Source: Candidatus Hodarchaeota archaeon
Lineage (GTDB): Archaea; Asgardarchaeota; Lokiarchaeia; Sigyniarchaeales; SOKP01
Length of the DNA: 64,000 bases
Reading direction: 5' to 3'
Assembly (NCBI GenBank): GCA_048886685.1
Contig: JBHLKM010000008.1
Coordinates: 107,897-171,896, forward strand
The stretch's first letter is position 1. Each line of letters opens with the position of its first letter. The position numbers and the translations under genes were made by a program. This document shows positions 37,297-55,707 of the stretch, piece by piece. The notes beneath the pieces were generated by a model. That model was not told the origin of the DNA and ran no database searches. It was given only the letters and a program-made list of their open reading frames with translations.

Positions 37297-37668
37297 TTAT
37301 TCATAAATTAGAGATGAATCTTTTTTACTCCTCATAAACGTGGAAAAATCTTTTATGGTTAATGCTTTTCGAATGTTTTCTGAATTCAAATTTAACTTAT
37401 TATTAGGTTCACAATTCCAGTCGTAGGATGCTCTTTCGTGAATTGCAAAATTATTGGGTTCTGGAGTTAAATCTTTAATTAGTTCACAAGTTTTACTTGT
37501 TTTAAACGCAATTGTATCAATACCTAAAAAAATTGAACAATTCCATTTATTATTGTCTCGACCTCCAAAATCTGTTAATCCACTAGATATAGAATAATCT
37601 TCACACTCCTGACAGATTTTACTATCATAACGGTACTTTTTTCCACAAACAGGACATTTTATTTCCAT
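37297..37668 (-). CDS. Zn-ribbon protein ending LIYE (paralog A), first gene of the glnA operon
   Basis: CPVCGKKYRYDSKICQECE..KWNC; 26-nt gap to glnA. Confidence 0.75.
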   Translation of the reverse strand: MEIKCPVCGKKYRYDSKICQECEDYSISSGLTDFGGRDNNKWNCSIFLGIDTIAFKTSKTCELIKDLTPEPNNFAIHERASYDWNCEPNNKLNLNSENIRKALTIKDFSTFMRSKKDSSLIYE

Positions 37669-37764: not shown

Positions 37765-37780
37765 TGGGATTTAAACCCCA
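37765..37780 (-). promoter_or_regulatory. GGG-N8-CCCA box upstream of the glnA operon
   Basis: TGGGGTTTAAATCCCA on the minus strand, 30 nt downstream of TATA-like TTTATATATA (37811-37820). Confidence 0.7.
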
Positions 37781-38880: not shown

Positions 38881-38896
38881 AGGGAACTTGTTCCCA
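38881..38896 (+). promoter_or_regulatory. GGG-N8-CCCA box upstream of the wHTH/Zn-ribbon/hdrBC/glt operon
   Basis: AGGGAACTTGTTCCCA, about 25 nt after TATA-like TTATAAATA (38848-38856). Confidence 0.7.
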
Positions 38897-38965: not shown

Positions 38966-39181
38966 ATAACAGTTCAAGAGTATTTTCGAACATGGGAAGA
39001 AATTTGCTTGGAAAAACTAAAAGAAATAGGAAGATGCTCAGCAGCCGAATGGGCTAGGGCAATGGGATATGGAGATAATCGTAATGGTGTGACAACAGTA
39101 ATAAAACGAATAAAAAAAACTATGCCTGAAAGGTTAACGGTTTATTATAACACCAGGCCACGATTATATGAAGCTGTATAA
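38966..39181 (+). CDS. Small winged-HTH protein, 71 aa, ATA start; absent from the ORF track
   Basis: (M)TVQEYFRTWEEICLEKLKEIGRCSAAEWARAMGYGDNRNGVTTVIKRIKKTMPERLTVYYNTRPRLYEAV*; GGAGGT SD 7 nt upstream; in-frame TGA at 38948. Confidence 0.7.
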   Translation: MTVQEYFRTWEEICLEKLKEIGRCSAAEWARAMGYGDNRNGVTTVIKRIKKTMPERLTVYYNTRPRLYEAV

Positions 39182-39211: not shown

Positions 39212-39724
39212 ATGCCATTAAAATGCCAAATTTGTGGAAAAGAATATTTATATGATGGAAAGATATGCCATAGCTGCGAAGAGAGTGCCATTACAAGTGG
39301 TTTGACATCTCGAGAGGGATATGAACATAAGTGGAGATGTGATAATTTTATTGAACCGAATGGTTTAGTATTTGGAAGCAATTTAAATAAGAGAAGAGAG
39401 TTTACATTAAAATTAATTGAATGTCCTGAATGTGGAGAAAAGTATTCCTATGGCAGAAAAATCTGTCATGTCTGTGAAGGTAATTTATTGCCGTTTGGAA
39501 CGTTATTCGATTCAGATCGCAAGGCACGTAGGTGGAATTGTGAAACAGTATTAGCTTGTATAGAGATATTGTCATCTAATTTAGATACTACTGAGACCAT
39601 TGTAAAAGATGTACCCCATTTAGAAAAACTCGAGAAAACTGATTATAAATGGAATCAAGTTTCGACTATAAAATATAATAATGAACAAATAGATGGGAAG
39701 AACAAGCTTCTGATCTATGAATAA
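39212..39724 (+). CDS. Double Zn-ribbon protein ending LIYE (paralog B)
   Basis: Two CxxCGxxYxYxxKICxxCE..WxC repeats. Confidence 0.75.
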   Translation: MPLKCQICGKEYLYDGKICHSCEESAITSGLTSREGYEHKWRCDNFIEPNGLVFGSNLNKRREFTLKLIECPECGEKYSYGRKICHVCEGNLLPFGTLFDSDRKARRWNCETVLACIEILSSNLDTTETIVKDVPHLEKLEKTDYKWNQVSTIKYNNEQIDGKNKLLIYE

Positions 39725-39920
39725 ATATCATTTTTTAAATTCAAGATTATTAAAAAAAAGTAAAAATAATGAATATAACTCAGGTTAAAATTATGAGCAT
39801 TGTAGTAGTAAAGAAGGTAGCTTATACATCTAATTAAAATTAAGTTATTTCTTTATGGTTTTACTTAATATTTTCATTTTATTTTAAAGTAACTTAATGT
39901 AATTAAAGAGGTTAAAAAAA

Positions 39921-41261
39921 ATTCAACAAGAGATAATGTTATTTCCAGGATGCGTGATAGTAAATAGATTTCCCTTTATTGAAGTCTCAATAAGGAAAGT
40001 ATTTGATCATCTGGGAATATCTTTTACTGAAAATCCCAAATTTTCTTGTTGTCCAGATCCAAATGGCATTAAAAATTCTAATAAGTTATTATATTCTATT
40101 ACCGCAGCTCGCAATATTGCTCTTGCTGAGTTAGAAAATAAAGCAATATTAACACCCTGTAACGGATGCTTTAGCACATTAAAAAAAGTCAAAAGTGAAA
40201 TCGATACAGATCACCATTTCAAAAGGAAAATCAATAGTTATTTAGATAAGATTGATATCAAGGTTGAGGGAAAGACTGAAGTATTCCATATGGTTGATTT
40301 CATTTTCAAATTTAAGAGAGACACTATCAGGGATAATTTAATATATCCACTGACGGGATTAAGAGTTGCTGTGCATTATGGATGTCATTTTCTTAGACCA
40401 AGCAATAAAGTTCAGATAGATGATCCCTTGGAACCAGCAATCTTTGATGACTTAATTAAGGATTTAGGTGCTGAAAGTATAGATTATAATCTTAAAATGG
40501 ATTGTTGTGGGGGAATTCTCGAGAGAGCTGGAAATTCAAGTTTATCATTAGAAATTATTAAAGCAAAATTAGAAAGCATGAAAGAAAAAGATGTGGATTG
40601 CATTGTTGTTTGCTGTCCTCAATGTTATATGCAATTTGATCATTTACAACAGGAAATGAAAAAATTTGACTTTAATTATGACATTCCTGTGCTATATTAT
40701 TCAGAATTATTATCTCTCGCATTAGGGCTAGATCTCCGAGATATTATTAAAAAGCATCATAGAACCCAAGTTGATTCACTTTTTGAAAAGATCGATCTCA
40801 TCCAAGAGAAAAATAAGGAGATAAGAAAATTCTTCGATCTTACCTTTTTACTTAAATGCTATTCATGTGGGGCATGCGATGACGATTGTATTATCTCAAA
40901 GATGACCGAATTTAGTCCGAAGGCACTCATAGGCAATATTATCAAAGGAAAAATTGATCAGGTAATCTCAGATCCTTCTATTTGGATGTGTCTCGACTGT
41001 TATTTGTGTTATGAGCTTTGTCCGATGGGAATTGGCCTAATTGAAATTTTTACTATATTACGAAATTTAGCAAAAGAAAGAGGTTTTATCACTAAAGGAT
41101 TTGAAAAGGAATTTAACGCTTTTTACAAAAAAGGAATAGTAGGAATGCCTTCGAAGGCAGCACGATCTAGAGTTGGATTACCATCACATATACCGGATGT
41201 TGGAGATTTGAAAGATTTGTTTAATGTAGTAGAAAGAGAGAATACAAAACTAGAGGAATAA
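39921..41261 (+). CDS. Heterodisulfide reductase HdrB-HdrC fusion (probable ATT start; ORF track start ATG 39936)
   Basis: Two CCG domains (FPGC..SCCPDP..PCNGC; HYGCH..CCGG..CCPQC) followed by CYSCGACDDDC and CLDCYLCYELCP. Confidence 0.88.
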   Translation: MQQEIMLFPGCVIVNRFPFIEVSIRKVFDHLGISFTENPKFSCCPDPNGIKNSNKLLYSITAARNIALAELENKAILTPCNGCFSTLKKVKSEIDTDHHFKRKINSYLDKIDIKVEGKTEVFHMVDFIFKFKRDTIRDNLIYPLTGLRVAVHYGCHFLRPSNKVQIDDPLEPAIFDDLIKDLGAESIDYNLKMDCCGGILERAGNSSLSLEIIKAKLESMKEKDVDCIVVCCPQCYMQFDHLQQEMKKFDFNYDIPVLYYSELLSLALGLDLRDIIKKHHRTQVDSLFEKIDLIQEKNKEIRKFFDLTFLLKCYSCGACDDDCIISKMTEFSPKALIGNIIKGKIDQVISDPSIWMCLDCYLCYELCPMGIGLIEIFTILRNLAKERGFITKGFEKEFNAFYKKGIVGMPSKAARSRVGLPSHIPDVGDLKDLFNVVERENTKLEE

Positions 41262-41264
41262 TTT

Positions 41265-42455
41265 ATGAGATGGGAAAATTATACCTCATTACCAGAGCAG
41301 TATAGGAATCAGAGAGTATTCGATGGATGTGGGATTTCTGGATTTATAAATGTTGATGGGAGTAGGGTTAGAGGGGATAAAGTCATTGATATGCTATGTA
41401 TTTTAAAGGAGAGGGAAAATGGATTAGGAGCTGGGTTTGCGGCTTATGGTATTTATCCAAAATATAAAAATTATTATGCATTTCATTTTCTCTTTGATAA
41501 TATTTCTGCTAAAACAAAAGTTTTAGATTATTTAGATAATAAAGGTACAATTATCGCATCTGAACCAATTCCAACTAATACTCCTTTAAATGTTGATAAT
41601 CCACCGATTATTTGGAGAGCTTTCTTCGATCCTAATAAAAGTGGAAGTCTGGAACCAGACGAAAAAGTCGTACAGATTGTAATGGAAATAAATGCGAACA
41701 TAGAAAATGCTTTTGTTATGTCTTCCGGTAAAAACATGGGTGTGTTTAAAGGAAATGGGTGGTCACATGAAATTGCCAATTTTTACAAAATTTCAGATTA
41801 TGACGCTTTTATGTGGTTAGCGCATTCTAGGTTTCCTACCAATACTCCTGGATGGTGGGGAGGTGCTCACCCCTTTAATTTATTAAATTGTTCAGTTGTT
41901 CATAATGGAGAAATAACATCCTATGGAACAAATAGAAGGTACTTAGACTCGTTTGGATATAAATGCACTCTCTTCACCGACACAGAAGTCATTGCATATT
42001 TATTTGATTTATTATGTCGTAAGCATCAAATACCCTTATCTATCGCCACAATTGCTCTAGCACCACCATTATTTGGTGAGATCGAAAAGTTAAGCAGGAG
42101 AGAGCAACTAGTGCTTAAAAGTATAAGAGCAACTTATCGGAGCGCGATGTTAAATGGACCATTTTCAATTGTGGTTGGTTTTTCAAATCCAATTCCTACA
42201 ATGATCGGATTATCTGATAGAAAAAAATTAAGACCCCTTGTAATTGGAATTTCAGATGATGAAAACACTATATATATGAGTAGTGAGGAAGCATCTTTCA
42301 AACGATTGACGTTATCTAATAGAAATTTCTCAATGAAAGAAATATGGCATCCCAAAAGTGGGTCAGCAACGATTGTCATGCTTGGTAAAGGATTGATAAC
42401 AAATGGCCTTGAAACACCAATAAAAAATTTAAAATTAACAATGATGGAGGCTTAA
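41265..42455 (+). CDS. Glutamate synthase amidotransferase subunit (archaeal GltB1, Ntn type)
   Basis: DGCG (Ntn Cys), ERENGLGAG, HSRFPTNT, AHPF, HNGEI, TDTEV. Confidence 0.9.
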   Translation: MRWENYTSLPEQYRNQRVFDGCGISGFINVDGSRVRGDKVIDMLCILKERENGLGAGFAAYGIYPKYKNYYAFHFLFDNISAKTKVLDYLDNKGTIIASEPIPTNTPLNVDNPPIIWRAFFDPNKSGSLEPDEKVVQIVMEINANIENAFVMSSGKNMGVFKGNGWSHEIANFYKISDYDAFMWLAHSRFPTNTPGWWGGAHPFNLLNCSVVHNGEITSYGTNRRYLDSFGYKCTLFTDTEVIAYLFDLLCRKHQIPLSIATIALAPPLFGEIEKLSRREQLVLKSIRATYRSAMLNGPFSIVVGFSNPIPTMIGLSDRKKLRPLVIGISDDENTIYMSSEEASFKRLTLSNRNFSMKEIWHPKSGSATIVMLGKGLITNGLETPIKNLKLTMMEA

Positions 42456-42458
42456 ATA

Positions 42459-43979
42459 ATGGCAATCGCGCATGAAATTATTAATTATTTTAAAGTTGAT
42501 ATAAATAGAGAAGATTGTAAAAAATGTAAACGATGCATTAATCACTGTTCATTTGGAGTTTTGTCTTTTAATGGGGAACAAATAATTGCTGAGGATCATA
42601 AATGTGTTGCCTGTCAACGGTGTGCAGTTATGTGTCCTGGAAATGCGATAAGAATTGTTCAAAATGAGTCATTTTTGCCACCTCATGGACATTATACAAG
42701 AAAAATTCGAAATATAATCTGGGCTCAATCTGGGAATGGAGGTGTTCTACTATCCGCAACTGGTAATGATAGACCAATCCGTTCAATATTCGATGATTTA
42801 CTTCTAGATGCGTGCCAAGTTACTAATCCCTCTATCGATCCCTTAAGAGAAACAATTGAAACTAAGATAATTTTTGGGAGAAAACCAAAGAAATTAACTT
42901 TCATCTCTCATCCGGATGATTTAGAAAAAATTTCTTTAAAAACCAACTTGATGCCGAATTTTGAGATTGATATGCCAATCATGGTAGGTCATATGTCTTT
43001 GGGTTCAATTAGTTATAATGCATGTCAGGCAATTTACCAAGCAGCAACTGAATTAAATATTGTAGCAGGATCAGGTGAAGGGGGTTTACATCCAGATTTC
43101 TATGAATATGCTCCGAATATAATTACAGAAGTTGCTTCTGGAAGATTTGGAGTGGATATTAATTATCTTAGCAATGCTGCGGCGTTAGAAATAAAGATCG
43201 GGCAAGGAGCTAAACCAGGGCATGGTGGTCACTTACCAGGTGAAAAAGTTAGCAGTTTAATCTCGCAAACCCGAATGATTCCAAAAGGAAGCGATGCGTT
43301 ATCACCTTATCCCCATCATGATATTTATTCAATAGAAGATTTAGCTCAATTGATAGCTGCCTTAAAAGAAGCAACAAGATATAAAGTTCCTGTAGGAGTA
43401 AAAATAGCGGCAGTTCATAATTCTGCTCCGATTGCAGTTGGAATTGTTAGAGGAAGTGCTGATTTTCTTACTTTAGACGGATTCCGTGGTGGAACTGGTG
43501 CTGCTCCAAGAATTATTCGGGATCATGCAGGAATCCCCATTGAATTAGCCATAGCTGCCGTTGATGAAAGATTAAGACAAGAAAATTTACGTGAAGAAGT
43601 AACTTTAATAGCTGGCGGTTCAATTCGATATTCTGCTGATTTAATTAAGGCTATTGCTCTAGGCGCTGATGTAGCAATGTGTTGTATGCCAGTTTTAATT
43701 TCAATGGGATGTAGAGTTTGTCAGCAATGCTTCAGGGGACTATGTCCCTGGGGAATTGCAACTCAACAAGAATATTTGGTAAAACGATTAGATGTTGATG
43801 TTGCGAAAAATAGAATAATTAATTTATTTCATTCTTGGAATGAAGAATTAAAGGAAGTTTTAGGAGCGATGGGAATTGATTCTATAGAATCGCTCCGCTC
43901 AAACCGAGACCGATTAAGATATATAGGTCCAAATCCGCGTATTGCGGACATTTTAGGAGTAAAACATGCAGGTGAATAA
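42459..43979 (+). CDS. Glutamate synthase FMN subunit with N-terminal 2x[4Fe-4S] (archaeal GltB2)
   Basis: VASGRFG, KIGQGAKPGHGGHLP, HHDIYSIEDL, GGTGAAP, CRVCQQC..CPWGIATQ. Confidence 0.92.
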   Translation: MAIAHEIINYFKVDINREDCKKCKRCINHCSFGVLSFNGEQIIAEDHKCVACQRCAVMCPGNAIRIVQNESFLPPHGHYTRKIRNIIWAQSGNGGVLLSATGNDRPIRSIFDDLLLDACQVTNPSIDPLRETIETKIIFGRKPKKLTFISHPDDLEKISLKTNLMPNFEIDMPIMVGHMSLGSISYNACQAIYQAATELNIVAGSGEGGLHPDFYEYAPNIITEVASGRFGVDINYLSNAAALEIKIGQGAKPGHGGHLPGEKVSSLISQTRMIPKGSDALSPYPHHDIYSIEDLAQLIAALKEATRYKVPVGVKIAAVHNSAPIAVGIVRGSADFLTLDGFRGGTGAAPRIIRDHAGIPIELAIAAVDERLRQENLREEVTLIAGGSIRYSADLIKAIALGADVAMCCMPVLISMGCRVCQQCFRGLCPWGIATQQEYLVKRLDVDVAKNRIINLFHSWNEELKEVLGAMGIDSIESLRSNRDRLRYIGPNPRIADILGVKHAGE

Positions 43980-44817
43980 AATTACTATAGTTAATGATAT
44001 TGAAACAAAAGATTTTGGAATTGGAATTGAAGAACCATTAGAGATAGATGCTGCTCCAAATGGAGATCCTCTCGATTATAGAGAATTAAATTCCATGATT
44101 CATAATGCTGTTAATAATAATTGTAAGAAAATTGTGTTAAACAATGTTTGTGGGCAAAGATTTATAGGTGCTGCTTTACAAGGAGATGTAGAAATAAGTA
44201 TTAATGGGGTTCCTGGTAATGATTTAGGGATTTTTATGGATGGTCCAAGAATTAGTGTTTTTGGGAATTGTGAGGACCAATCTGGTAATACCATGAATCA
44301 AGGAACAATGATAATTGATGGGGATGGAGGAGATGTTATAGGCTTATCTTCAAGAGGCGGGAAGATTTATATCAAAGGTGATGTTGGATATAGAGTTGGT
44401 ATTCACATGAAAGAATATGAAGACCATTTTCCAATATTAATAGTCGGTGGCACAGCTAAAGACTTTTTAGGTGAATATATGGCTGGTGGTAAAATTATTG
44501 TACTTGGTTTAAAAATTTCCTCAAATAGTAGTATTTCTGAGAGTCCACAGTCAATTTGTGGTACGGAATTAGGAACAGGGATTCATAGGGGTGCTATTTA
44601 TCTTCGAACAGAAGAAAATGTAGAGGATAGGTTAGGTGTTGGAGCAAAAGTTTTCAATCTTTCAAAAGATGAACAAGAAGAAATTGATACTTACGTAGAA
44701 GATTTCTGTAAAACATTTAATGTTCCCCTAAGTGCTGTTGATAATAAACCTTTTAAAGTTATTAAACCAATTTCAAAAAGACCTTTTGGTGGAAATTATT
44801 GTAGCCAATTAATCTAA
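43966..44817 (+). CDS. Glutamate synthase GXGXG subunit (archaeal GltB3)
   Basis: GQRFIG, GVPGNDLG, GYRVGIHMK, DFLGEYMAGG; overlaps gltB2 by 14 nt. Confidence 0.9.
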   Translation: MQVNKITIVNDIETKDFGIGIEEPLEIDAAPNGDPLDYRELNSMIHNAVNNNCKKIVLNNVCGQRFIGAALQGDVEISINGVPGNDLGIFMDGPRISVFGNCEDQSGNTMNQGTMIIDGDGGDVIGLSSRGGKIYIKGDVGYRVGIHMKEYEDHFPILIVGGTAKDFLGEYMAGGKIIVLGLKISSNSSISESPQSICGTELGTGIHRGAIYLRTEENVEDRLGVGAKVFNLSKDEQEEIDTYVEDFCKTFNVPLSAVDNKPFKVIKPISKRPFGGNYCSQLI

Positions 44818-45040: not shown

Positions 45041-45056
45041 TGGGAATACAAACCCA
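45041..45056 (+). promoter_or_regulatory. GGG-N8-CCCA box upstream of the second FMN subunit
   Basis: TGGGAATACAAACCCA, 25 nt after TATA-like TTTATTAATA (45006-45015). Confidence 0.65.
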
Positions 45057-45092
45057 CTATTTTTTTGAATACATTTGAAAAGTAGATTATTT

Positions 45093-46742
45093 ATGACAAA
45101 ATTTTCAATGGATACTCATCAATCAAGCATGATAGGGTCTAGAACCAGAGTTGAGGATTCTTGTGAATCTGGTTTGTGCCCAATTTGTGTAGCAGATTGC
45201 CCTGTTTTCTGCGAAGTTTCAAAATCTGCTTTGCGCGGTCGCGAAGTGTTATATCCACGTAGAGAATTTTTTGGTAATTCTACAGCTGGTTCACCAAAAG
45301 ATTTTGGGTTCTCTTATAGTGACTTTCAAATTCAATTTGAATGTCGAGGAGCTCAGGGAATTGAAGAAGATGAAGATAAAGTAATATTTCCTAATGTTAA
45401 TATTAAAACTAAGTGGGGAAATATTGAACAAAAAAATCCATTTGTAATTGCTGGTTTAGGAAGCACTTACGTTGCAAAACGTAACTGGGATGGTTTAGCA
45501 ATAGGAGCTGCATTATCAGGAGTAAGTACTACTGTAGGAGAGAATGTAGTTGGAATGGATCCTTATGCTAAATTCGCAAACCATGCCGTATATCCTAAAG
45601 TAGTTGATACACAGGATATGAAATATCGGGTTGAAAAATACAGAGAATTTTGGGATGGGAAGCATGGAGATATTATTGTACAAAAAAATGTAGAGGATAC
45701 AAGATTAGGTGTTTTTGATTATGTTATGTCTAATTTAGAAGTAAACTCACTTGAAATAAAATTTGGTCAAGGTGCAAAAGCAATTGGAGGCGAAGTCAGG
45801 TTAGAATCATTGGAGCGTGCCCAATTACTGCAGGAAAGAGGGTACCTTGTCTTTCCTGATCCTTCAGATCCAGTTATTATTGAACAGTGGAAAGAAGGAT
45901 TAATTCCAGACTTTGAAAGACATAGTCGGGTAGGACTATCTTCTACTGAGGATGTTTTAGAAGAAATTGATCAAGTACGCTCAAGCGGCGCAAAAAATAT
46001 TTTCATAAAAACTGGAGCATACAGACCAGCAGCAACAGCTTGGATAATAAGATTAGGTATTGAAGGAAAAGTAGATGGAATGACTTTTGATGGTGCTGGT
46101 GGAGGTACTGGTATGAGTCCAGTAAGTATGATGAATGAAGGATCAATTCCAACAGCCTATTTAGAAGCACTAGTAGTTGGATGTCTTGATATGATTAAAA
46201 AGAAAAATCCGAATGTATCTATACCCTCTATTGCAATAGCAGGTGGTATTGCTAATGAAACACAGATTTTTAAAGCACTTGCTATGGGTGCTCCTTATGT
46301 AAATTGCATTGCGATGGCAAGAGCCCCAATTACCGCAGCTATGAAAGCAAAATTCATTGGAGAGGTTATTAATAAAAAGGAAGCCACACCTGCAATGCTT
46401 CGCAATTTGGGTTTCTATAAGGACAAAGATCCTAAAAGTTTGACATTAAGTGAAGCTTTTGTTGAGTATGATAATTTGAATAGAATTTATAACGGAAATC
46501 GTATTCCTCCTTCGGCGATTGGAGTTTACACTTATTTTACTAGCAAATTAGGTATAGGACTCCAACAACTATTAGCTGGAGTTCGAAAATTTAAGGCGAA
46601 TTTAATATGTCGAAATGATATTGCTTATATTTCTCAAAGAGCTAAAGAAGTATGTAAAAAATGGAATCTTGGAATTAAATCTCAAGAATCACTCGATTAT
46701 GAGTTAGTAAAAAATGAGATTTATTCTGGGAATTATGATTAA
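45093..46742 (+). CDS. FMN-binding glutamate synthase family protein (stand-alone GltB2-like) with N-terminal Cys cluster
   Basis: CESGLCPICVADCPVFCE, KFGQGAKAIGGE, DGAGGGTGMSP, AGG, KALAMGA; ATG 45093 preferred over TTG 45075. Confidence 0.85.
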   Translation: MTKFSMDTHQSSMIGSRTRVEDSCESGLCPICVADCPVFCEVSKSALRGREVLYPRREFFGNSTAGSPKDFGFSYSDFQIQFECRGAQGIEEDEDKVIFPNVNIKTKWGNIEQKNPFVIAGLGSTYVAKRNWDGLAIGAALSGVSTTVGENVVGMDPYAKFANHAVYPKVVDTQDMKYRVEKYREFWDGKHGDIIVQKNVEDTRLGVFDYVMSNLEVNSLEIKFGQGAKAIGGEVRLESLERAQLLQERGYLVFPDPSDPVIIEQWKEGLIPDFERHSRVGLSSTEDVLEEIDQVRSSGAKNIFIKTGAYRPAATAWIIRLGIEGKVDGMTFDGAGGGTGMSPVSMMNEGSIPTAYLEALVVGCLDMIKKKNPNVSIPSIAIAGGIANETQIFKALAMGAPYVNCIAMARAPITAAMKAKFIGEVINKKEATPAMLRNLGFYKDKDPKSLTLSEAFVEYDNLNRIYNGNRIPPSAIGVYTYFTSKLGIGLQQLLAGVRKFKANLICRNDIAYISQRAKEVCKKWNLGIKSQESLDYELVKNEIYSGNYD

Positions 46743-50533: not shown

Positions 50534-50549
50534 GGGGAAAAAATTCCCA
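50534..50549 (+). promoter_or_regulatory. GGG-N8-CCCA box upstream of the nfn-like operon
   Basis: GGGGAAAAAATTCCCA. Confidence 0.65.
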
Positions 50550-50665
50550 TAAACAGAGTGATTTACGATATATTTTTTTTAGGTCGAATTATTCTTCAAT
50601 TAGGAGGAACAAAATTATTTTCGAATTGAATCTTCAAATAAATCTTGAATATAATAAGAATCGCA

Positions 50666-51550
50666 ATGCCTTTTAAAATTTTAAAAAAAATCCAACTTGG
50701 AAAAAGTGGTACATTATTTGAAATTGATATTTACGCCCCGCTAATAGCTAAGAAAGCATTTGCAGGTAACTTTATACTTCTTAGAATTAATGAAACAGGG
50801 GAGCGAATTCCCTTAACAATTGCTGATTATGATACTGATAACGGAACATTAACTATCGTTTTTCAAGTAATTGGAAAAAGTACAAAACTTCTTTCTACTC
50901 TGAATGTAGAAGATGAAATTTTAGATGTTGTTGGACCATTAGGTAATAGAATTCATACTGAAAAATATGAAAATTCTGTTGTTATTGTTGGGGGTGGTGT
51001 TGGTATAGCAGAATGTTATCCCCAAGCAAAGGAATTGAAAAACATAGGAAATAACATTATATCGATAATAGGAGCAAGGACGAAAGATTTAATATTTTGG
51101 AAAGATAAAATGGCTGCTGTAACTGATACATTAATTATATGCACTGATGATGGAAGTGAAGGAATAGAGGGATTTGTAACAGATCCACTTAAAAAGCTAC
51201 TCAAAACTGAGAAAATAAGTGTTGTGATAGCGATTGGACCATTAATCATGATGAAGAACGTTTCTCTTTTAACAAATGGATTGAATAATTTGCCTAAAGT
51301 AAGAACCTATGTATCTTTAAATACAATAATGATTGATGGTACTGGAATGTGTGGGGGATGTCGATTCTCAACTCATGATGGTAACATATATTTTGCATGT
51401 GTTGAAGGACCTGATGTAGATGGGCATATAGTTGATTTTGATAATCTTTTAAATCGTTCTAAAAGATTTATTAAACAAGAACAGGAATCTTTAGAAAATT
51501 TTGAACATGAATGTAAAGCTCTAGAAAAAACAGGGGGAAATGCATCTTAG
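50666..51550 (+). CDS. nfnA: NfnA/SudB-type FAD-[2Fe-2S] subunit (ferredoxin:NADP+ oxidoreductase small subunit)
   Basis: GERIPLTI, GPLG, GGGVG, TDDGS, DGTGMCGGC..CVEGP; ATG 50666 preferred over TTG 50645. Confidence 0.88.
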   Translation: MPFKILKKIQLGKSGTLFEIDIYAPLIAKKAFAGNFILLRINETGERIPLTIADYDTDNGTLTIVFQVIGKSTKLLSTLNVEDEILDVVGPLGNRIHTEKYENSVVIVGGGVGIAECYPQAKELKNIGNNIISIIGARTKDLIFWKDKMAAVTDTLIICTDDGSEGIEGFVTDPLKKLLKTEKISVVIAIGPLIMMKNVSLLTNGLNNLPKVRTYVSLNTIMIDGTGMCGGCRFSTHDGNIYFACVEGPDVDGHIVDFDNLLNRSKRFIKQEQESLENFEHECKALEKTGGNAS

Positions 51551-54275
51551 AATGGAGTTCCAAACACCATTAATAAAAGTTTTGCTTGAGAATAAGGCTA
51601 AGATTTTAGAGGCAAAAAGATATGGCACTGAATCTGAATTTCAAAACTTCCTTAATTTAATAATTAATGCAGAAAAACAACGACAAGCTGTTTTAAAAGG
51701 GATAAAAGAAATAGGCTCTATAAATATCCAAAAATTAAAGAATAATTTGGGCATAACAGAAGAAGCCCTGATTTATAATGTAGAGTATTTAAAAGAATTA
51801 GGTTCTTTGGAATTTATTGGGGAAAAATCAAGATTTTTTCAAAAAATAATTGAAAAAAATGGTTATACTGGCTTATTTCCAAATGTTTCAATAATAAGAG
51901 ACAGAAATCTATGTTGTGGTTGTGGTTTATGTGATTCTATCTGCCCTGTAAAAGCAATAAACTATACAGGTAATACTTTTGAGCTAAAGGAAGAAGTTTG
52001 TTTCAACTGTGGGTTGTGTTTTTCATGTTGTCCAAGATCTTTCTTCCCAAAAACATTGAAAAGAATTAAAAAAAATACTCATTTAAATTCCAAATTTTCA
52101 GAACCATTGAATTATTATTATGAAATACATTCTGCTTCCACTAATGATGATCGTATAAGAGCTGTAGCTCAGAATGGAGGAATTGTTACCAGTTTGCTTA
52201 AAGCAGCTTTTCAAGAGAATTTTATTGATGCTGCTATAGCAGTAAGTGTGTCTGATGAGCCGCATAAATCTCTACCTATAATAATTGATAGTGAGGAAGG
52301 ATTATTAAGAACTGCAAGCACAAAATATACAAATTCGCCCTCTTTGAAGTTATTACGCATATCTCAAGATTATAAAAGGATTGCTGTAGTTGGTACACCT
52401 TGTATGATGAAGGCACTTAAAAAAGTCTCCTTTTATCCTCTTAATAAACCTTTTTATGAAAATATCGTCATAAAAATCGGATTATTTTGTATGGACTCAT
52501 TTAATTATGATCAAATTAAATCTGTATTGAAAAAAGAGTTTCATATAACTCCAAAAGAAGTAAAAAAAATGGATATTGACAAGGGACGATTTTATGTTTT
52601 TCATCAAGACGGTTCTATTTTTACTATGCCTGTAAAAGATCTTGTTAAATTTAGTAGACTTGAATGTTTCTTCTGTGATGATCTCACCTCAGAACAAGCC
52701 GATATTTCTGTAGGCTCTATAGGATCTGAACCTGGCTGGTCTACAGTGCTTGTAAGGACTAAAAAAGGAGTTCAATTATTTCAGAAGGCTTTAAGTCTTG
52801 GATTAATTGAAAAAAAAGAAATATTAGAGGATAGTAAAGATTTTATTACTCTAAGCAGAATTGCTAAATCTAAACAAAAGGTTTATAAGGACATATATCG
52901 ACCAAAAATGATAGAACAGGACCCAAATATAAGAATTACTAATTTTCAAGAAGTAGCTAAAGGTTTAACATTAGATATGGTAAAATTAGAATCTACAAGG
53001 TGTTTACAATGTGGAAAACCGCTTTGTATTGAAGGTTGTCCAGTAAATATAGATATTCCTCAATTCATTAGATTATTGAGGGAAGAAAAATTAATTGATG
53101 CACTAAGAGTGATGAAAGATTATAATTTATTACCGGCCATATGTGGAAGAGTGTGTCCTCAAGAAATACAATGTGAAAAAACATGTTTACTAAATAATTT
53201 AGAAGAACCAATCAGTATTGGTTATTTAGAAAGATTTATTGCTGATTGGGAAAGAATGAATGAACTCAAAGAATGTCCAGATTGTCAATCCCCAAACAAT
53301 ATTAAAGTTGCGATTATAGGTTCAGGACCAGCAGGATTAACATGTGCTGCAGAACTTGCTAAATTGGGTTATGATGTCACTATCTTTGAAGCATTACATG
53401 ATGGAGGAGGCGTATTAACTTATGGTATTCCTGAATTTAGATTACCAAAAGAGATCGTTAAAGACGAAATTGATACCTTAAAATTACTTGATGTAAAGAT
53501 TCAATATAATACGATTATAGGCAAAACGTTAACAATACAGGATTTGAAGGATCAAGGATACAAGGCTATTTTCATAGGTGTAGGCGCAGGACTCCCGATA
53601 TTCCCTAAAATAAATGGCTTAAACCTAAATGGTGTTTTAACAGCAAATGAATTTCTTACAAGAGCGAACCTAATGAAAGCTTATAAATTTCCTGAATATG
53701 ACACTCCAATTAAAGTGGGAGATATTGTTACTGTTATTGGAGGAGGAAATACGGCTCTTGATGCTTCTAGAGTTGCCAAACGATTAGGGGCCAAAAAAGT
53801 AATGGTTATTTATAGGAGATCCGAAGCAGAGATACCCGCAAGAAAAGAAGAATTTCATCATGCTATTGAAGAAGGAATCGAATTCCAGTTTTTAACTAAT
53901 CCTTTAGAGTTTATAGGTGATGAAAATGACAATGTAAAACAAATTCAGGTTATTAAAATGAAATTAGGTGAACTTGATGAATCTGGCCGACGTAGACCAA
54001 TCCCAATCGAAAATTCTGAATTTTCCATATATGCTGACACTGTTATATTAGCAATTGGTACAATAGCTAATCCAATATTAATTAAATCGCTTCCAGAATT
54101 AAAACTTGATAAATGGGGTTATATCGAAACTGATGAAAATAGTAGAACTAATTTAGAAGGAATTTATGCAGGGGGAGATATAGTTTCAGGCTCTGCAACC
54201 GTTATATCTGCCATGGGTGGTGGAAAAAAAGCTGCTCACGCCATAGATGAGTATTTAAGAAATCTATTATTATAA
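51540..54275 (+). CDS. wHTH-like + 2x[4Fe-4S] + FrhB (F420-binding) + NfnB/SudA/GltD fusion
   Basis: CCGCGLCDSICP, QNGGIVTSLL, VVGTPC, GLFC, ADISVGSIG..GWSTVLVRT; then RCLQC, CGRVCPQE, GSGPAG, GGGNTA, YRRS. Confidence 0.88.
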   Translation: MHLRMEFQTPLIKVLLENKAKILEAKRYGTESEFQNFLNLIINAEKQRQAVLKGIKEIGSINIQKLKNNLGITEEALIYNVEYLKELGSLEFIGEKSRFFQKIIEKNGYTGLFPNVSIIRDRNLCCGCGLCDSICPVKAINYTGNTFELKEEVCFNCGLCFSCCPRSFFPKTLKRIKKNTHLNSKFSEPLNYYYEIHSASTNDDRIRAVAQNGGIVTSLLKAAFQENFIDAAIAVSVSDEPHKSLPIIIDSEEGLLRTASTKYTNSPSLKLLRISQDYKRIAVVGTPCMMKALKKVSFYPLNKPFYENIVIKIGLFCMDSFNYDQIKSVLKKEFHITPKEVKKMDIDKGRFYVFHQDGSIFTMPVKDLVKFSRLECFFCDDLTSEQADISVGSIGSEPGWSTVLVRTKKGVQLFQKALSLGLIEKKEILEDSKDFITLSRIAKSKQKVYKDIYRPKMIEQDPNIRITNFQEVAKGLTLDMVKLESTRCLQCGKPLCIEGCPVNIDIPQFIRLLREEKLIDALRVMKDYNLLPAICGRVCPQEIQCEKTCLLNNLEEPISIGYLERFIADWERMNELKECPDCQSPNNIKVAIIGSGPAGLTCAAELAKLGYDVTIFEALHDGGGVLTYGIPEFRLPKEIVKDEIDTLKLLDVKIQYNTIIGKTLTIQDLKDQGYKAIFIGVGAGLPIFPKINGLNLNGVLTANEFLTRANLMKAYKFPEYDTPIKVGDIVTVIGGGNTALDASRVAKRLGAKKVMVIYRRSEAEIPARKEEFHHAIEEGIEFQFLTNPLEFIGDENDNVKQIQVIKMKLGELDESGRRRPIPIENSEFSIYADTVILAIGTIANPILIKSLPELKLDKWGYIETDENSRTNLEGIYAGGDIVSGSATVISAMGGGKKAAHAIDEYLRNLLL

Positions 54276-54456
54276 TGTTTCACCCCTTTCCCAGATTTTT
54301 CCCATAGCAAACTTTTATTGCGTTTATTTTAATATAATTAATTATTATTCAAATTAAATATAAAAAAAAGCAATTCTATTCAAGAAATTTCTAATTATTG
54401 GAGATTAATTGAACAACATTCATTCTAGCATAAAATAATAAAAAAAATTGATTAAA

Positions 54457-55707
54457 ATGAATGAGAATTTAGATCCTTTTTCAATTGCTCAACAACAACT
54501 TTATGATGCGTGTAAAATAAGTGGGTATGATTCAGAAATCTATAATGCGTTAAGCGAGCCAGAACGATTCGTTCAAATTAAAATCACAATGAAAATGGAT
54601 GATGGGTCGCTAAAGACTTTCCAAGGTTTCAGAAGCCAATATAATTCTGCTAGAGGACCAATGAAAGGTGGTATTCGGTGGCATCCTGATGAATCAGCTT
54701 CTCTTGTAAAAGCATTATCTGCATGGATGACATGGAAGACTGCTTGTGTTGATATCCCCTTAGGTGGTGCAAAAGGAGGAATTATATGTAATCCTAAAGA
54801 GATGAGTAATCGGGAAATTGAAACTTTAGCGAGAAGTTATATAAGGCAGCTCGCAGACTTTATTGGACCTAATATCGATGTACCTGCCCCAGATGTTTAT
54901 ACAAATCCACAAATTATGGCATACATGCAAGATGAATATGAAAAAATAGTACGCCATCATGCACCCTCAGTTATTACTGGCAAGCCTTTACCTTTGGGTG
55001 GTAGTGCTGGAAGGTCAATAGCAACAGCTAAAGGGGGAGTTTATACAGTTAGAGAGGCTGCAAAAGACATAGGATTGAACTTAAATGGTGCAACTGTAGC
55101 AATTCAAGGATATGGTAATGCTGGATCATGGGCAGCTAAAATTCTACATGATGATTTCAATTGTAAAATCATAGCTGTATCAGATTCTAGAGGTGGCATT
55201 TATAATGAAGATGGTTTAAACCCTTACGCTGCAGGTGAGCATAAAGAAAAAACAAGATCAGTAGTAGGAACTAAGGGTTCAAAAGAAATTTCAAACGAAG
55301 AATTATTGGAGTTAGAATGTGATGTTTTAATACCTGCGGCATTAGAAAATGTTATAACTAGAAATAACGCAGATAATATAAATACCAAAATTATTGCGGA
55401 ATTGGCAAATGGCCCAACAACACCTGATGCAGATACTATACTTTTTGAAAAAGGAGTTCTTGTTATACCTGATTTTTTGTGTAATGCTGGTGGGGTTACT
55501 GTATCATATTTCGAAATGGTGCAAGGTTATTACCGATATTTCTGGACAGAAACAGAAGTTTTTGAAGCATTGGATAGAGTTATGACGAGAGCTTATCGTT
55601 CTACAGTTGATCAATCAGAGAGATTCAATACCCATAATAGAATGGGGGCATATATTATCTCTTTAGAGCGTGTGATATCTGCAATGAGACTTAGAGGGTG
55701 GATTTGA
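54457..55707 (+). CDS. gdhA: Glutamate dehydrogenase
   Basis: KGGIRWHP, MTWK, GGAKGG, DVPAPD, TGKP, QGYGNAG, ELANGP, NAGGV. Confidence 0.95.
   Translation: MNENLDPFSIAQQQLYDACKISGYDSEIYNALSEPERFVQIKITMKMDDGSLKTFQGFRSQYNSARGPMKGGIRWHPDESASLVKALSAWMTWKTACVDIPLGGAKGGIICNPKEMSNREIETLARSYIRQLADFIGPNIDVPAPDVYTNPQIMAYMQDEYEKIVRHHAPSVITGKPLPLGGSAGRSIATAKGGVYTVREAAKDIGLNLNGATVAIQGYGNAGSWAAKILHDDFNCKIIAVSDSRGGIYNEDGLNPYAAGEHKEKTRSVVGTKGSKEISNEELLELECDVLIPAALENVITRNNADNINTKIIAELANGPTTPDADTILFEKGVLVIPDFLCNAGGVTVSYFEMVQGYYRYFWTETEVFEALDRVMTRAYRSTVDQSERFNTHNRMGAYIISLERVISAMRLRGWI

Follow-up and report, generated by a model that had tools for sequence, protein, structure and literature searches.

In a 64,000-nucleotide (64-kb) stretch of a lokiarchaeial genome (Candidatus Hodarchaeota archaeon, contig JBHLKM010000008.1, positions 107,897 to 171,896; hereafter the window), a gene encoding a fusion of HdrB and HdrC is followed directly by gltB1, gltB2 and gltB3, the genes of a split glutamate synthase. 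The unit is genuine and of ancient origin, and we found no account of it in the literature that could be searched. We think it quite probable that HdrBC lies in the electron path of the enzyme. With less assurance, we favour a reading in which the products of all four genes form a single glutamate synthase that is driven by the oxidation of a thiol, by analogy with thiol:fumarate reductase.

An initial annotation of the window had described an intact HdrB-HdrC fusion heading gltB1-gltB2-gltB3, and open reading frame (ORF) and domain checks confirmed this arrangement. The fusion is separated from gltB1, and gltB1 from gltB2, by 3 nucleotides (nt), and gltB2 and gltB3 overlap by 14 nt (coordinates in Table 1). 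Pfam and NCBIfam models placed a 4Fe-4S dicluster C-terminal to two CCG domains in the fusion, and identified GATase_2 in gltB1, Fer4 and Glu_synthase in gltB2, and GXGXG in gltB3. The glt genes have the features of split GltB1/B2/B3 synthases, namely an N-terminal nucleophile (Ntn) glutaminase with its N-terminal Cys motif, a flavin mononucleotide (FMN) synthase with an Fe-S motif and a GXGXG subunit, all in one operon. The FMN synthase domain of GltB2 matched NADPH-GltS/Fd-GltS with an E value of about 1e-56. This gltB2 is the sole true gltB2 in the source genome, and in 5/5 genomes tested the sole true gltB2 sits in the cassette. As first claimed, the operon has no GltD or FrhB subunit: domain annotation revealed neither gltD nor frhB in it, nor a gene for an NAD(P)H flavoprotein, either at the source locus or in the 80 loci described below, and the 64-kb window contains no hdrA-like gene close to the cassette. 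In GltB2, C418, C421, C424 and C429 (43710-43745) include an invariant fourth Cys relative to the three-Cys [3Fe-4S] motif of GltB, and this FMN-proximal CxxCxxCx4C motif may hold a [4Fe-4S] cluster.

Distribution and phylogeny of the hdrBC-glt unit

The closest homologues of the fusion come from named Promethearchaeota/Lokiarchaeia. We collected 80 loci from GTDB genomes, of which 72 were informative in that their sequence ran on for 400 nt or more past the fusion. Each of these 72 has gltB1 directly 3' of the fusion (frameshifted in one case), and three more loci showed the start of gltB1 at a contig end. This linkage is far beyond chance. The carriers in this set were Lokiarchaeia, one Thermoproteota archaeon, Methanosarcinales, Actinomycetota and Armatimonadota, and the cassette was also found in Schekmanbacteria, Planctomycetota and a deltaproteobacterial/Acidulodesulfobacterium cluster, so that the known carriers come from Asgard archaea, from archaea outside Asgard and from some seven bacterial phyla. 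The linkage, first noted in a single genome, therefore extends over both domains and is not confined to its source. Protein searches also returned fusions whose names assign them to Nitrospirota, Bacillota and Ca. Borrarchaeum.

Within groups, the fusion was present in 45/149 Lokiarchaeia genomes (about 30%; a matching gltB2 in 44 of the 45, the exception being a contig end), in 66/151 Coriobacteriia (44% of those sampled), in 20 of the 31 genomes of one Armatimonadota class (65%) and in 3/121 genomes of one methanogen class. Across domains HdrBC is kept immediately before gltB1 or gltB2 at 32-40% identity, and no fusion without glt was found wherever the contig permitted the check (a one-way dependence). 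The hdrBC-glt link is ancient. Two unfused hdrB + hdrC pairs, in B-C order, also precede glt genes. We rejected the split arrangement as the ancestral form, as the split forms nest among the fusions; they more likely arose by fission. At one locus (L165:7001-9856) split hdrB and hdrC stand immediately before gltB2; this locus has neither gltB1 nor gltB3, and a glutamate dehydrogenase gene is found 5 kb upstream.

The expectation of a glt-linked HdrB clade was also borne out. In the smaller and more careful of two trees (the other being larger and quick), 37 of the 38 glt-linked or B-C-fused HdrBs separated from 32 others with a support of 94/92, the bootstrap not being fully settled, and so form essentially one clade. 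The exceptions were one fusion outside the clade (L184) and one unlinked, long-branch HdrB inside it (P0228). The HdrB paralogues of the source genome, including those linked to HdrA, fell outside.

Such a fusion could be the BC part of an HdrABC complex with its HdrA encoded elsewhere, the glutamate synthase being a bifurcating branch or a mere neighbour. The source genome indeed has more than 15 hdrA-type genes, several without adjacent hdrBC, and seven other hdrB genes elsewhere, all overlooked in the initial annotation, and hdrA is present in 15/39 carrier genomes. However, no hdrA was detected in the other 24, which include the single-chromosome or single-scaffold assemblies G160, G169 and G170, nor in 13 of 20 Armatimonadota carriers. 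G169, a single-chromosome assembly, encodes no CCG protein besides the fusion. No hdrA lies within 10 kb of the fusion in 80/80 loci, the HdrC part of the fusion lacks the N-terminal stretch of HdrA-linked HdrC, and the HdrA-linked HdrBs of the source genome itself are not members of the clade. HdrA is thus not generally needed. As a general rule the HdrABC explanation is refuted, and we regard it overall as extremely improbable.

HdrBC as a candidate thiol-oxidizing input subunit

In five Lokiarchaeia the fusion is missing and GltB2 is of another type (52-55% identical). Their glt operons instead contain genes for a 4Fe-4S ferredoxin and a Pyr_redox_2 flavoprotein (Fer4 and Pyr_redox_2 content confirmed by Pfam in three of the five). 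This supports, at the level of gene content, a role for HdrBC in filling the electron-input slot, in mutual exclusion with a ferredoxin + NAD(P)H flavoprotein module. Universal synteny, a clade of its own, mutual exclusion and independence from HdrA together mark HdrBC as a dedicated partner of glutamate synthase.

The fusion resembles methanogen HdrBC in fold and cluster ligands. Residues 1-290 matched methanogen HdrB (E value 8e-64; about 35-40% identity over the HdrB part) and the remainder matched HdrC from its residue 28-37 onward. An AlphaFold2 model had a predicted local distance difference test (pLDDT) score of 91.6 and a template-modelling (TM) score to HdrB of 0.90-0.92, depending on the target. 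The 10 CCG Cys, the His and the 8 HdrC Cys are conserved in every one of the 78 aligned fusions that covers the respective position. Bit scores were below the curated cut-offs for both families (263.6 vs 345.15 for TIGR03288; 80 vs 160 for TIGR03290). In PDB 5ODR, Gly46 and Gly198 contact the sulfonate of coenzyme M (CoM), and Arg14, Arg201 and Arg240 contact coenzyme B (CoB; PMC13261682). By alignment, the CoB anchors Arg14 and Arg201 are kept as R11 and R197, and Arg240 is replaced by His. On the CoM side Gly46 is replaced by Asn and the glycine loop is shorter and altered: CCPAPG becomes CCP(D/E)xx..K, and CCGAGGG becomes CCGGxL, with the acidic residue and the lysine conserved within the clade. 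Two other HdrBs of the source genome keep the methanogen-type CoM-binding loops. With its cluster ligands intact and its substrate loops changed, the site of the fusion looks catalytic but adapted to a substrate other than CoM/CoB.

HdrBC might also be a subunit of the synthase that relays electrons through its Fe-S clusters, offers a docking site or makes contact with the membrane or quinol, the donor being ferredoxin (for example from NfnAB-FrhB) or quinol. Other CCG proteins act in this way (SdhE, EtfD, GlpC), and the SdhE model matches the fusion (E value 1e-46); moreover, hdrBC is dispensable in three genomes, and the upstream box of the glt operon recurs in variant form before an nfnA/frhB-nfnB/gdhA operon 6 kb away. 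Yet the fusion is much nearer to HdrB than to SdhE/EtfD (263 vs 160 bits; TM 0.92 vs 0.26), it keeps both non-cubane sites and two of the three substrate-anchoring Arg residues, and only 7/80 loci, all of them from Lokiarchaeia, have an nfn gene within 10 kb. As a catalytic HdrB domain would be superfluous for a ferredoxin donor, we consider this explanation unlikely.

Returning to thiol oxidation, the fusion would be the electron-input subunit of a four-gene glutamate synthase. GltB1 would hydrolyse Gln and GltB2 would use its FMN site to add the ammonia to 2-oxoglutarate, as is established for the family for both steps, while HdrBC would run the Hdr reaction backwards, as in thiol:fumarate reductase. 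We infer complex formation, the direction of electron flow and the identity of the donor alike. The donor could be dihydrolipoyl on a GcvH-type carrier, its dithiol being regenerated by lipoamide dehydrogenase/NADH or by glycine cleavage, or else a small-molecule thiol, with CoM/CoB used only in MCR-bearing carriers and perhaps in the source genome.

The textbook 2-oxoglutarate/Glu couple combined with Gln hydrolysis places the glutamate synthase couple at about -50 to -70 mV. With a donor at -290 mV (lipoamide, PMC6067878) or -281 mV (revised value for CoM/CoB, PMC12054007), we computed about -41 to -47 kJ/mol for the overall reaction, and a level to slightly downhill reduction of the FMN, taken at -270 mV as in GltS with 2-oxoglutarate bound (PMC8097209). 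The initial annotation had argued that a thiol-driven reaction is feasible because the glutamate synthase couple is more positive than that of CoM/CoB. This holds, the FMN step being uphill only with the older CoM/CoB potential.

The same potentials bear on the reverse operation, in which GltB2 would oxidize glutamate and HdrBC reduce a disulfide for amino-acid catabolism. Lokiarchaeia are amino-acid fermenters, and HdrBC normally reduces disulfides. Against this, glutamate oxidation would be strongly uphill against a -280 mV disulfide, and the glutaminase subunit gltB1 is retained throughout. Assimilation is further favoured by an upstream box common to the operon and the glnA region, and by glnA itself, a frequent neighbour of the cassette that lies within 10 kb in many of the 80 loci. 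Reverse operation therefore seems to us very improbable.

Which thiol might be oxidized? CoM-SH/CoB-SH, as first suggested, does not stand as a general donor, since comA and comE were absent in 3/3 bacterial carriers tested and the CoM-binding loops differ. The source genome has comDE and neither comA nor mcrA, and mcrA is present in three archaeal carriers; CoM is a possible donor in the source genome (comDE) and in the MCR-bearing carriers. A comD-comE pair (sulfopyruvate decarboxylase, above cut-offs) was seen at L228:7129-8183 (G000:C5:24128-25182), in a Lokiarchaeia genome without comA/mcrA. Together with the two HdrB paralogues of this genome that have methanogen-type loops, comD-comE makes CoM use in Lokiarchaeia worth considering. 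Among other candidates, DsrC as thiol donor was rejected, being found in none of 5 genomes, as was CoA-disulfide reductase as regenerator, found only in the source genome among 5; one cassette-adjacent copy occurs in L186.

For a lipoyl carrier, a GcvH-type protein was found in 50/50 genomes of one search, 42 of them carriers. In Coriobacteriia, GcvH was present in 66/66 carriers compared to 16/85 non-carriers, and in the methanogen class in 3/3 carriers compared to 2/118 non-carriers (5/121 overall). Lipoate ligase was found in 5/5 carriers and lipoamide dehydrogenase in 5/5 non-methanogen carriers. The mercapto-octanoyl arm of lipoate would also resemble the mercapto-heptanoyl arm of CoB. 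A dihydrolipoyl protein is thus our leading candidate donor, accounting for about half of our confidence in a thiol donor, and we put it forward tentatively, as a lead rather than a result. A class of glutamate synthase that is widespread among uncultured anaerobes of both domains and is fed at an HdrB-type non-cubane site by protein-bound dihydrolipoyl, or by another dithiol that is not CoM/CoB, is possible though on balance doubtful.

Stand-alone GcvH-like pairs were also seen (L213:7101-11537, L214:7417-8307, L218 and L219), the one in L219, a non-carrier, lying beside lipoate ligase and radical SAM genes. In the pairs of the methanogen class a clear lipoyl-lysine motif was present in one member per pair only, and in the loci read no P or T gene of the glycine-cleavage system accompanied the H-proteins of this class.

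Several observations weigh against a thiol-fed synthase, and against a lipoyl donor in particular. The correlation between GcvH and the cassette is confounded by kinship, so that nominal P values exaggerate its significance, lipoamide dehydrogenase scored above its family cut-off in only 1/3 methanogen-class carriers, and no lipoyl-carrier gene is among the recurrent neighbours of the cassette in the 80 loci, such genes being found elsewhere in every carrier genome tested. HdrBCA-MetVF of Sporomusa was not stimulated by glutathione or dihydrolipoate (PMC9430772); thiols of this kind are thus not necessarily substrates of HdrB-like subunits. With the older CoM/CoB potential of -138 mV, the overall reaction would yield only -14 to -18 kJ/mol and the FMN step would be about 20-25 kJ/mol uphill. 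The source genome has many hdrA genes, and an Nfn/GltD-like operon lies 6 kb away. Finally, three Lokiarchaeia (G061, G016 and G049) retain intact gltB1-3 of this type without hdrBC. In G016 a decayed hdrBC 3' remnant (L176:8139-8342, minus strand) precedes intact gltB1-3, and the loss is recent. The core may therefore work without HdrBC, perhaps on ferredoxin, and GltB2 could draw on free ferredoxin via its own ferredoxin domain.

Loss of hdrBC with gltB1-3 intact also fits a protein that is co-expressed but off the catalytic path. Such a protein would sense a thiol/disulfide state, or set one, and thereby regulate or repair the synthase (its catalytic Cys, for instance), or would act in another nitrogen-linked reaction. 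We find this distinctly improbable, as HdrBC alternates with an input module of known NAD(P)H type in the same operon and has been kept right before gltB1 or gltB2 across domains despite its divergence. Thus, of the thiol-oxidizing input module originally proposed, the dedicated partnership, the intact-looking thiol/disulfide site and the permissive thermodynamics remain, while the general CoM-SH/CoB-SH donor does not.

Start codon and surroundings of the cassette

The start of hdrBC was originally placed at an ATT codon (39921), and this is probably right. ATT is found at this position in 31/43 Asgard loci, 21 of which have no ATG, GTG or TTG in the last ten codons. Some Asgard loci have an in-frame stop 1-2 codons 5' of the ATT, and others have a near-cognate ATA, ACA or ACG in its place. 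Given the conserved ATT, the scarcity of canonical starts nearby and the upstream in-frame stops, translation likely begins at AUU (window 39908-39923), which may reflect translational control or a general habit of Lokiarchaeia. Many of these fusion proteins are annotated in databases as N-terminally truncated forms of 419-433 amino acids (aa).

Table 1. Features of the cassette and its upstream region (window coordinates)
Feature	Position	Strand	Remarks
Palindromic box WGGGA-N6-NCCCA	38881..38896	+	5' of glt operon; putative nitrogen-regulon operator
71-aa ORF, unannotated, conserved	38966..39181	+	probable ATA start after GGAGGT
170-aa double zinc-ribbon protein	39212..39724	+	5' of hdrBC in close kin only
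Shine-Dalgarno-like GAGGT	39908..39912	+	8 nt 5' of ATT start
hdrB-hdrC fusion	39921..41261	+	446 aa from ATT 39921; 441 aa from ATG 39936
HdrB domain	39921..40805	+	two CCG motifs, non-cubane [4Fe-4S] clusters
HdrB ligands			numbering from ATG: C6, C38, C39, C75, C78; C150, H151, C190, C191, C227, C230
HdrC domain	40806..41261	+	2x[4Fe-4S]: C308/311/314/318, C352/355/358/362
gltB1, glutamine amidotransferase subunit	41265..42455	+	
gltB1 putative catalytic N-terminal Cys	codon 41328-41330		exposed by pro-peptide removal
gltB2, FMN synthase subunit	42459..43979	+	N-terminal 2x[4Fe-4S] ferredoxin domain, C-terminal CxxCxxCx4C
gltB3, GXGXG beta-helix subunit	43966..44817	+	

GGG-N8-CCCA boxes occur at 37765-37780 (glnA/lrp region), before the glt operon, at 45041-45056 (gltB2-like gene) and at 50534-50549 (nfn-gdhA operon). 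The first three count as matches, compared to 0.53 expected, and the box before nfnA is a variant form. The box was also found 5' of the cassette in 12/35 Asgard loci, and in its spacing it is similar to the NrpR operator.

The 71-aa ORF has relatives at 50-94% identity, a paralogue on contig C46 near a second glnA, and no Pfam match. It is likely on the same transcript as the cassette in close kin, lies outside the conserved cassette, and is possibly a small DNA-binding regulator of nitrogen genes. The zinc-ribbon protein before hdrBC has a relative before glnA (37297-37668, minus strand), the two flanking lrp and showing conservation in close kin only.

The operon of nfnA, frhB-nfnB (GltD-like) and gdhA, at 50645-55707 on the plus strand, had been overlooked previously. 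It encodes an FrhB-NfnB fusion of 911 aa between nfnA and gdhA, and nfnA/FrhB-NfnB is a candidate F420H2/NADPH/NADH/ferredoxin transhydrogenase adjoining glutamate dehydrogenase. The gene for a 555-aa GltB2-like protein (45075-46742, plus strand) was rejected as part of the system, as it occurs independently of the cassette across Lokiarchaeia. This FMN-binding protein has an N-terminal CxxCxxxCxxxC motif, is present in 66/149 Lokiarchaeia and is often near the cassette in bacteria and archaea. A local search of the source genome gave no match for amt/glnK.

Related systems and significance

A functional parallel is TfrAB of methanogens, in which a CCG + Fe-S subunit draws thiol electrons for a biosynthetic flavoenzyme, a fumarate reductase containing flavin adenine dinucleotide, in CoM/CoB organisms only. 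The thiol-to-flavoenzyme logic proposed here is the same. In contrast to the fusion, TfrB (NCBIfam NF004898) has its Fe-S domain first: model positions 266-485 align to the N-terminus of the fusion, in keeping with the earlier remark that the B-then-C order is reversed. The fusion scored 59.7 bits against the TfrB/HdrD cut-off of 385, and its neighbours are glt genes, not TfrA/HdrE. Methanogen HdrABC (PDB 5ODC/5ODR, 7BKB, 8RVU) shares with the fusion its fold, both CCG motifs with His, the HdrC dicluster and the CoB anchors Arg14/Arg201. It differs in that our system has a B-C fusion, no HdrA partner, sub-cut-off scores, changed CoM loops, no Arg240 and a proposed oxidation of thiols. By their defining features, the hdrBC-glt unit is a member of neither the CoB-CoM Hdr nor the Tfr family.

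Other split archaeal glutamate synthases likewise combine the three-gene core with a fourth redox gene in the operon. Elsewhere this gene is FrhB-like or is replaced by a ferredoxin + NAD(P)H flavoprotein, whereas HdrBC has no flavin or nucleotide-binding site. The FrhB-linked form has been proposed to be F420-dependent (PMC3087415, PMC9012536), described as remaining to be proven (PMC3087415). NADPH-GltS (GltB + GltD) and Fd-GltS (PDB 6S6S, 7MFM, 1LLW; PMC8097209) share the FMN synthase domain and chemistry, but here three separate genes make up the large subunit, a 2x[4Fe-4S] domain is built into GltB2, the [3Fe-4S] motif has gained a fourth invariant Cys, and the operon has no GltD.

A precedent for a lipoyl donor comes from sHdr-LbpA of sulfur oxidizers, in which Hdr-like non-cubane proteins in organisms without CoM/CoB are functionally tied to GcvH-like lipoate-binding proteins (PMC6067878). 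The sHdr cluster contains HdrA and lbpA, whereas the present unit lacks HdrA, is not linked to the lipoyl genes and has a glutamate synthase as its partner. The initial annotation knew of no described thiol-dependent glutamate synthase, and we likewise found no description of one, or of any Hdr-glutamate synthase unit, in the searchable literature, which leaves most subscription papers outside its scope and novelty thus unproven.

When nitrogen is scarce, ammonium is assimilated mainly through glutamate synthase, for which NAD(P)H and ferredoxin are known donors and F420H2 is a proposed one. If our interpretation is correct, the thiol-fed form would add a new donor class for ammonium assimilation, and, for the first time, an HdrA-independent HdrBC of non-methanogens would have a defined substrate and a function of its own. 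As there is a single assayable partner reaction and no HdrA, candidate thiols could be screened with a four-gene, 4.9-kb construct. The finding thereby bears on the long-standing question of the role of HdrB-like proteins in organisms that lack coenzymes M and B.

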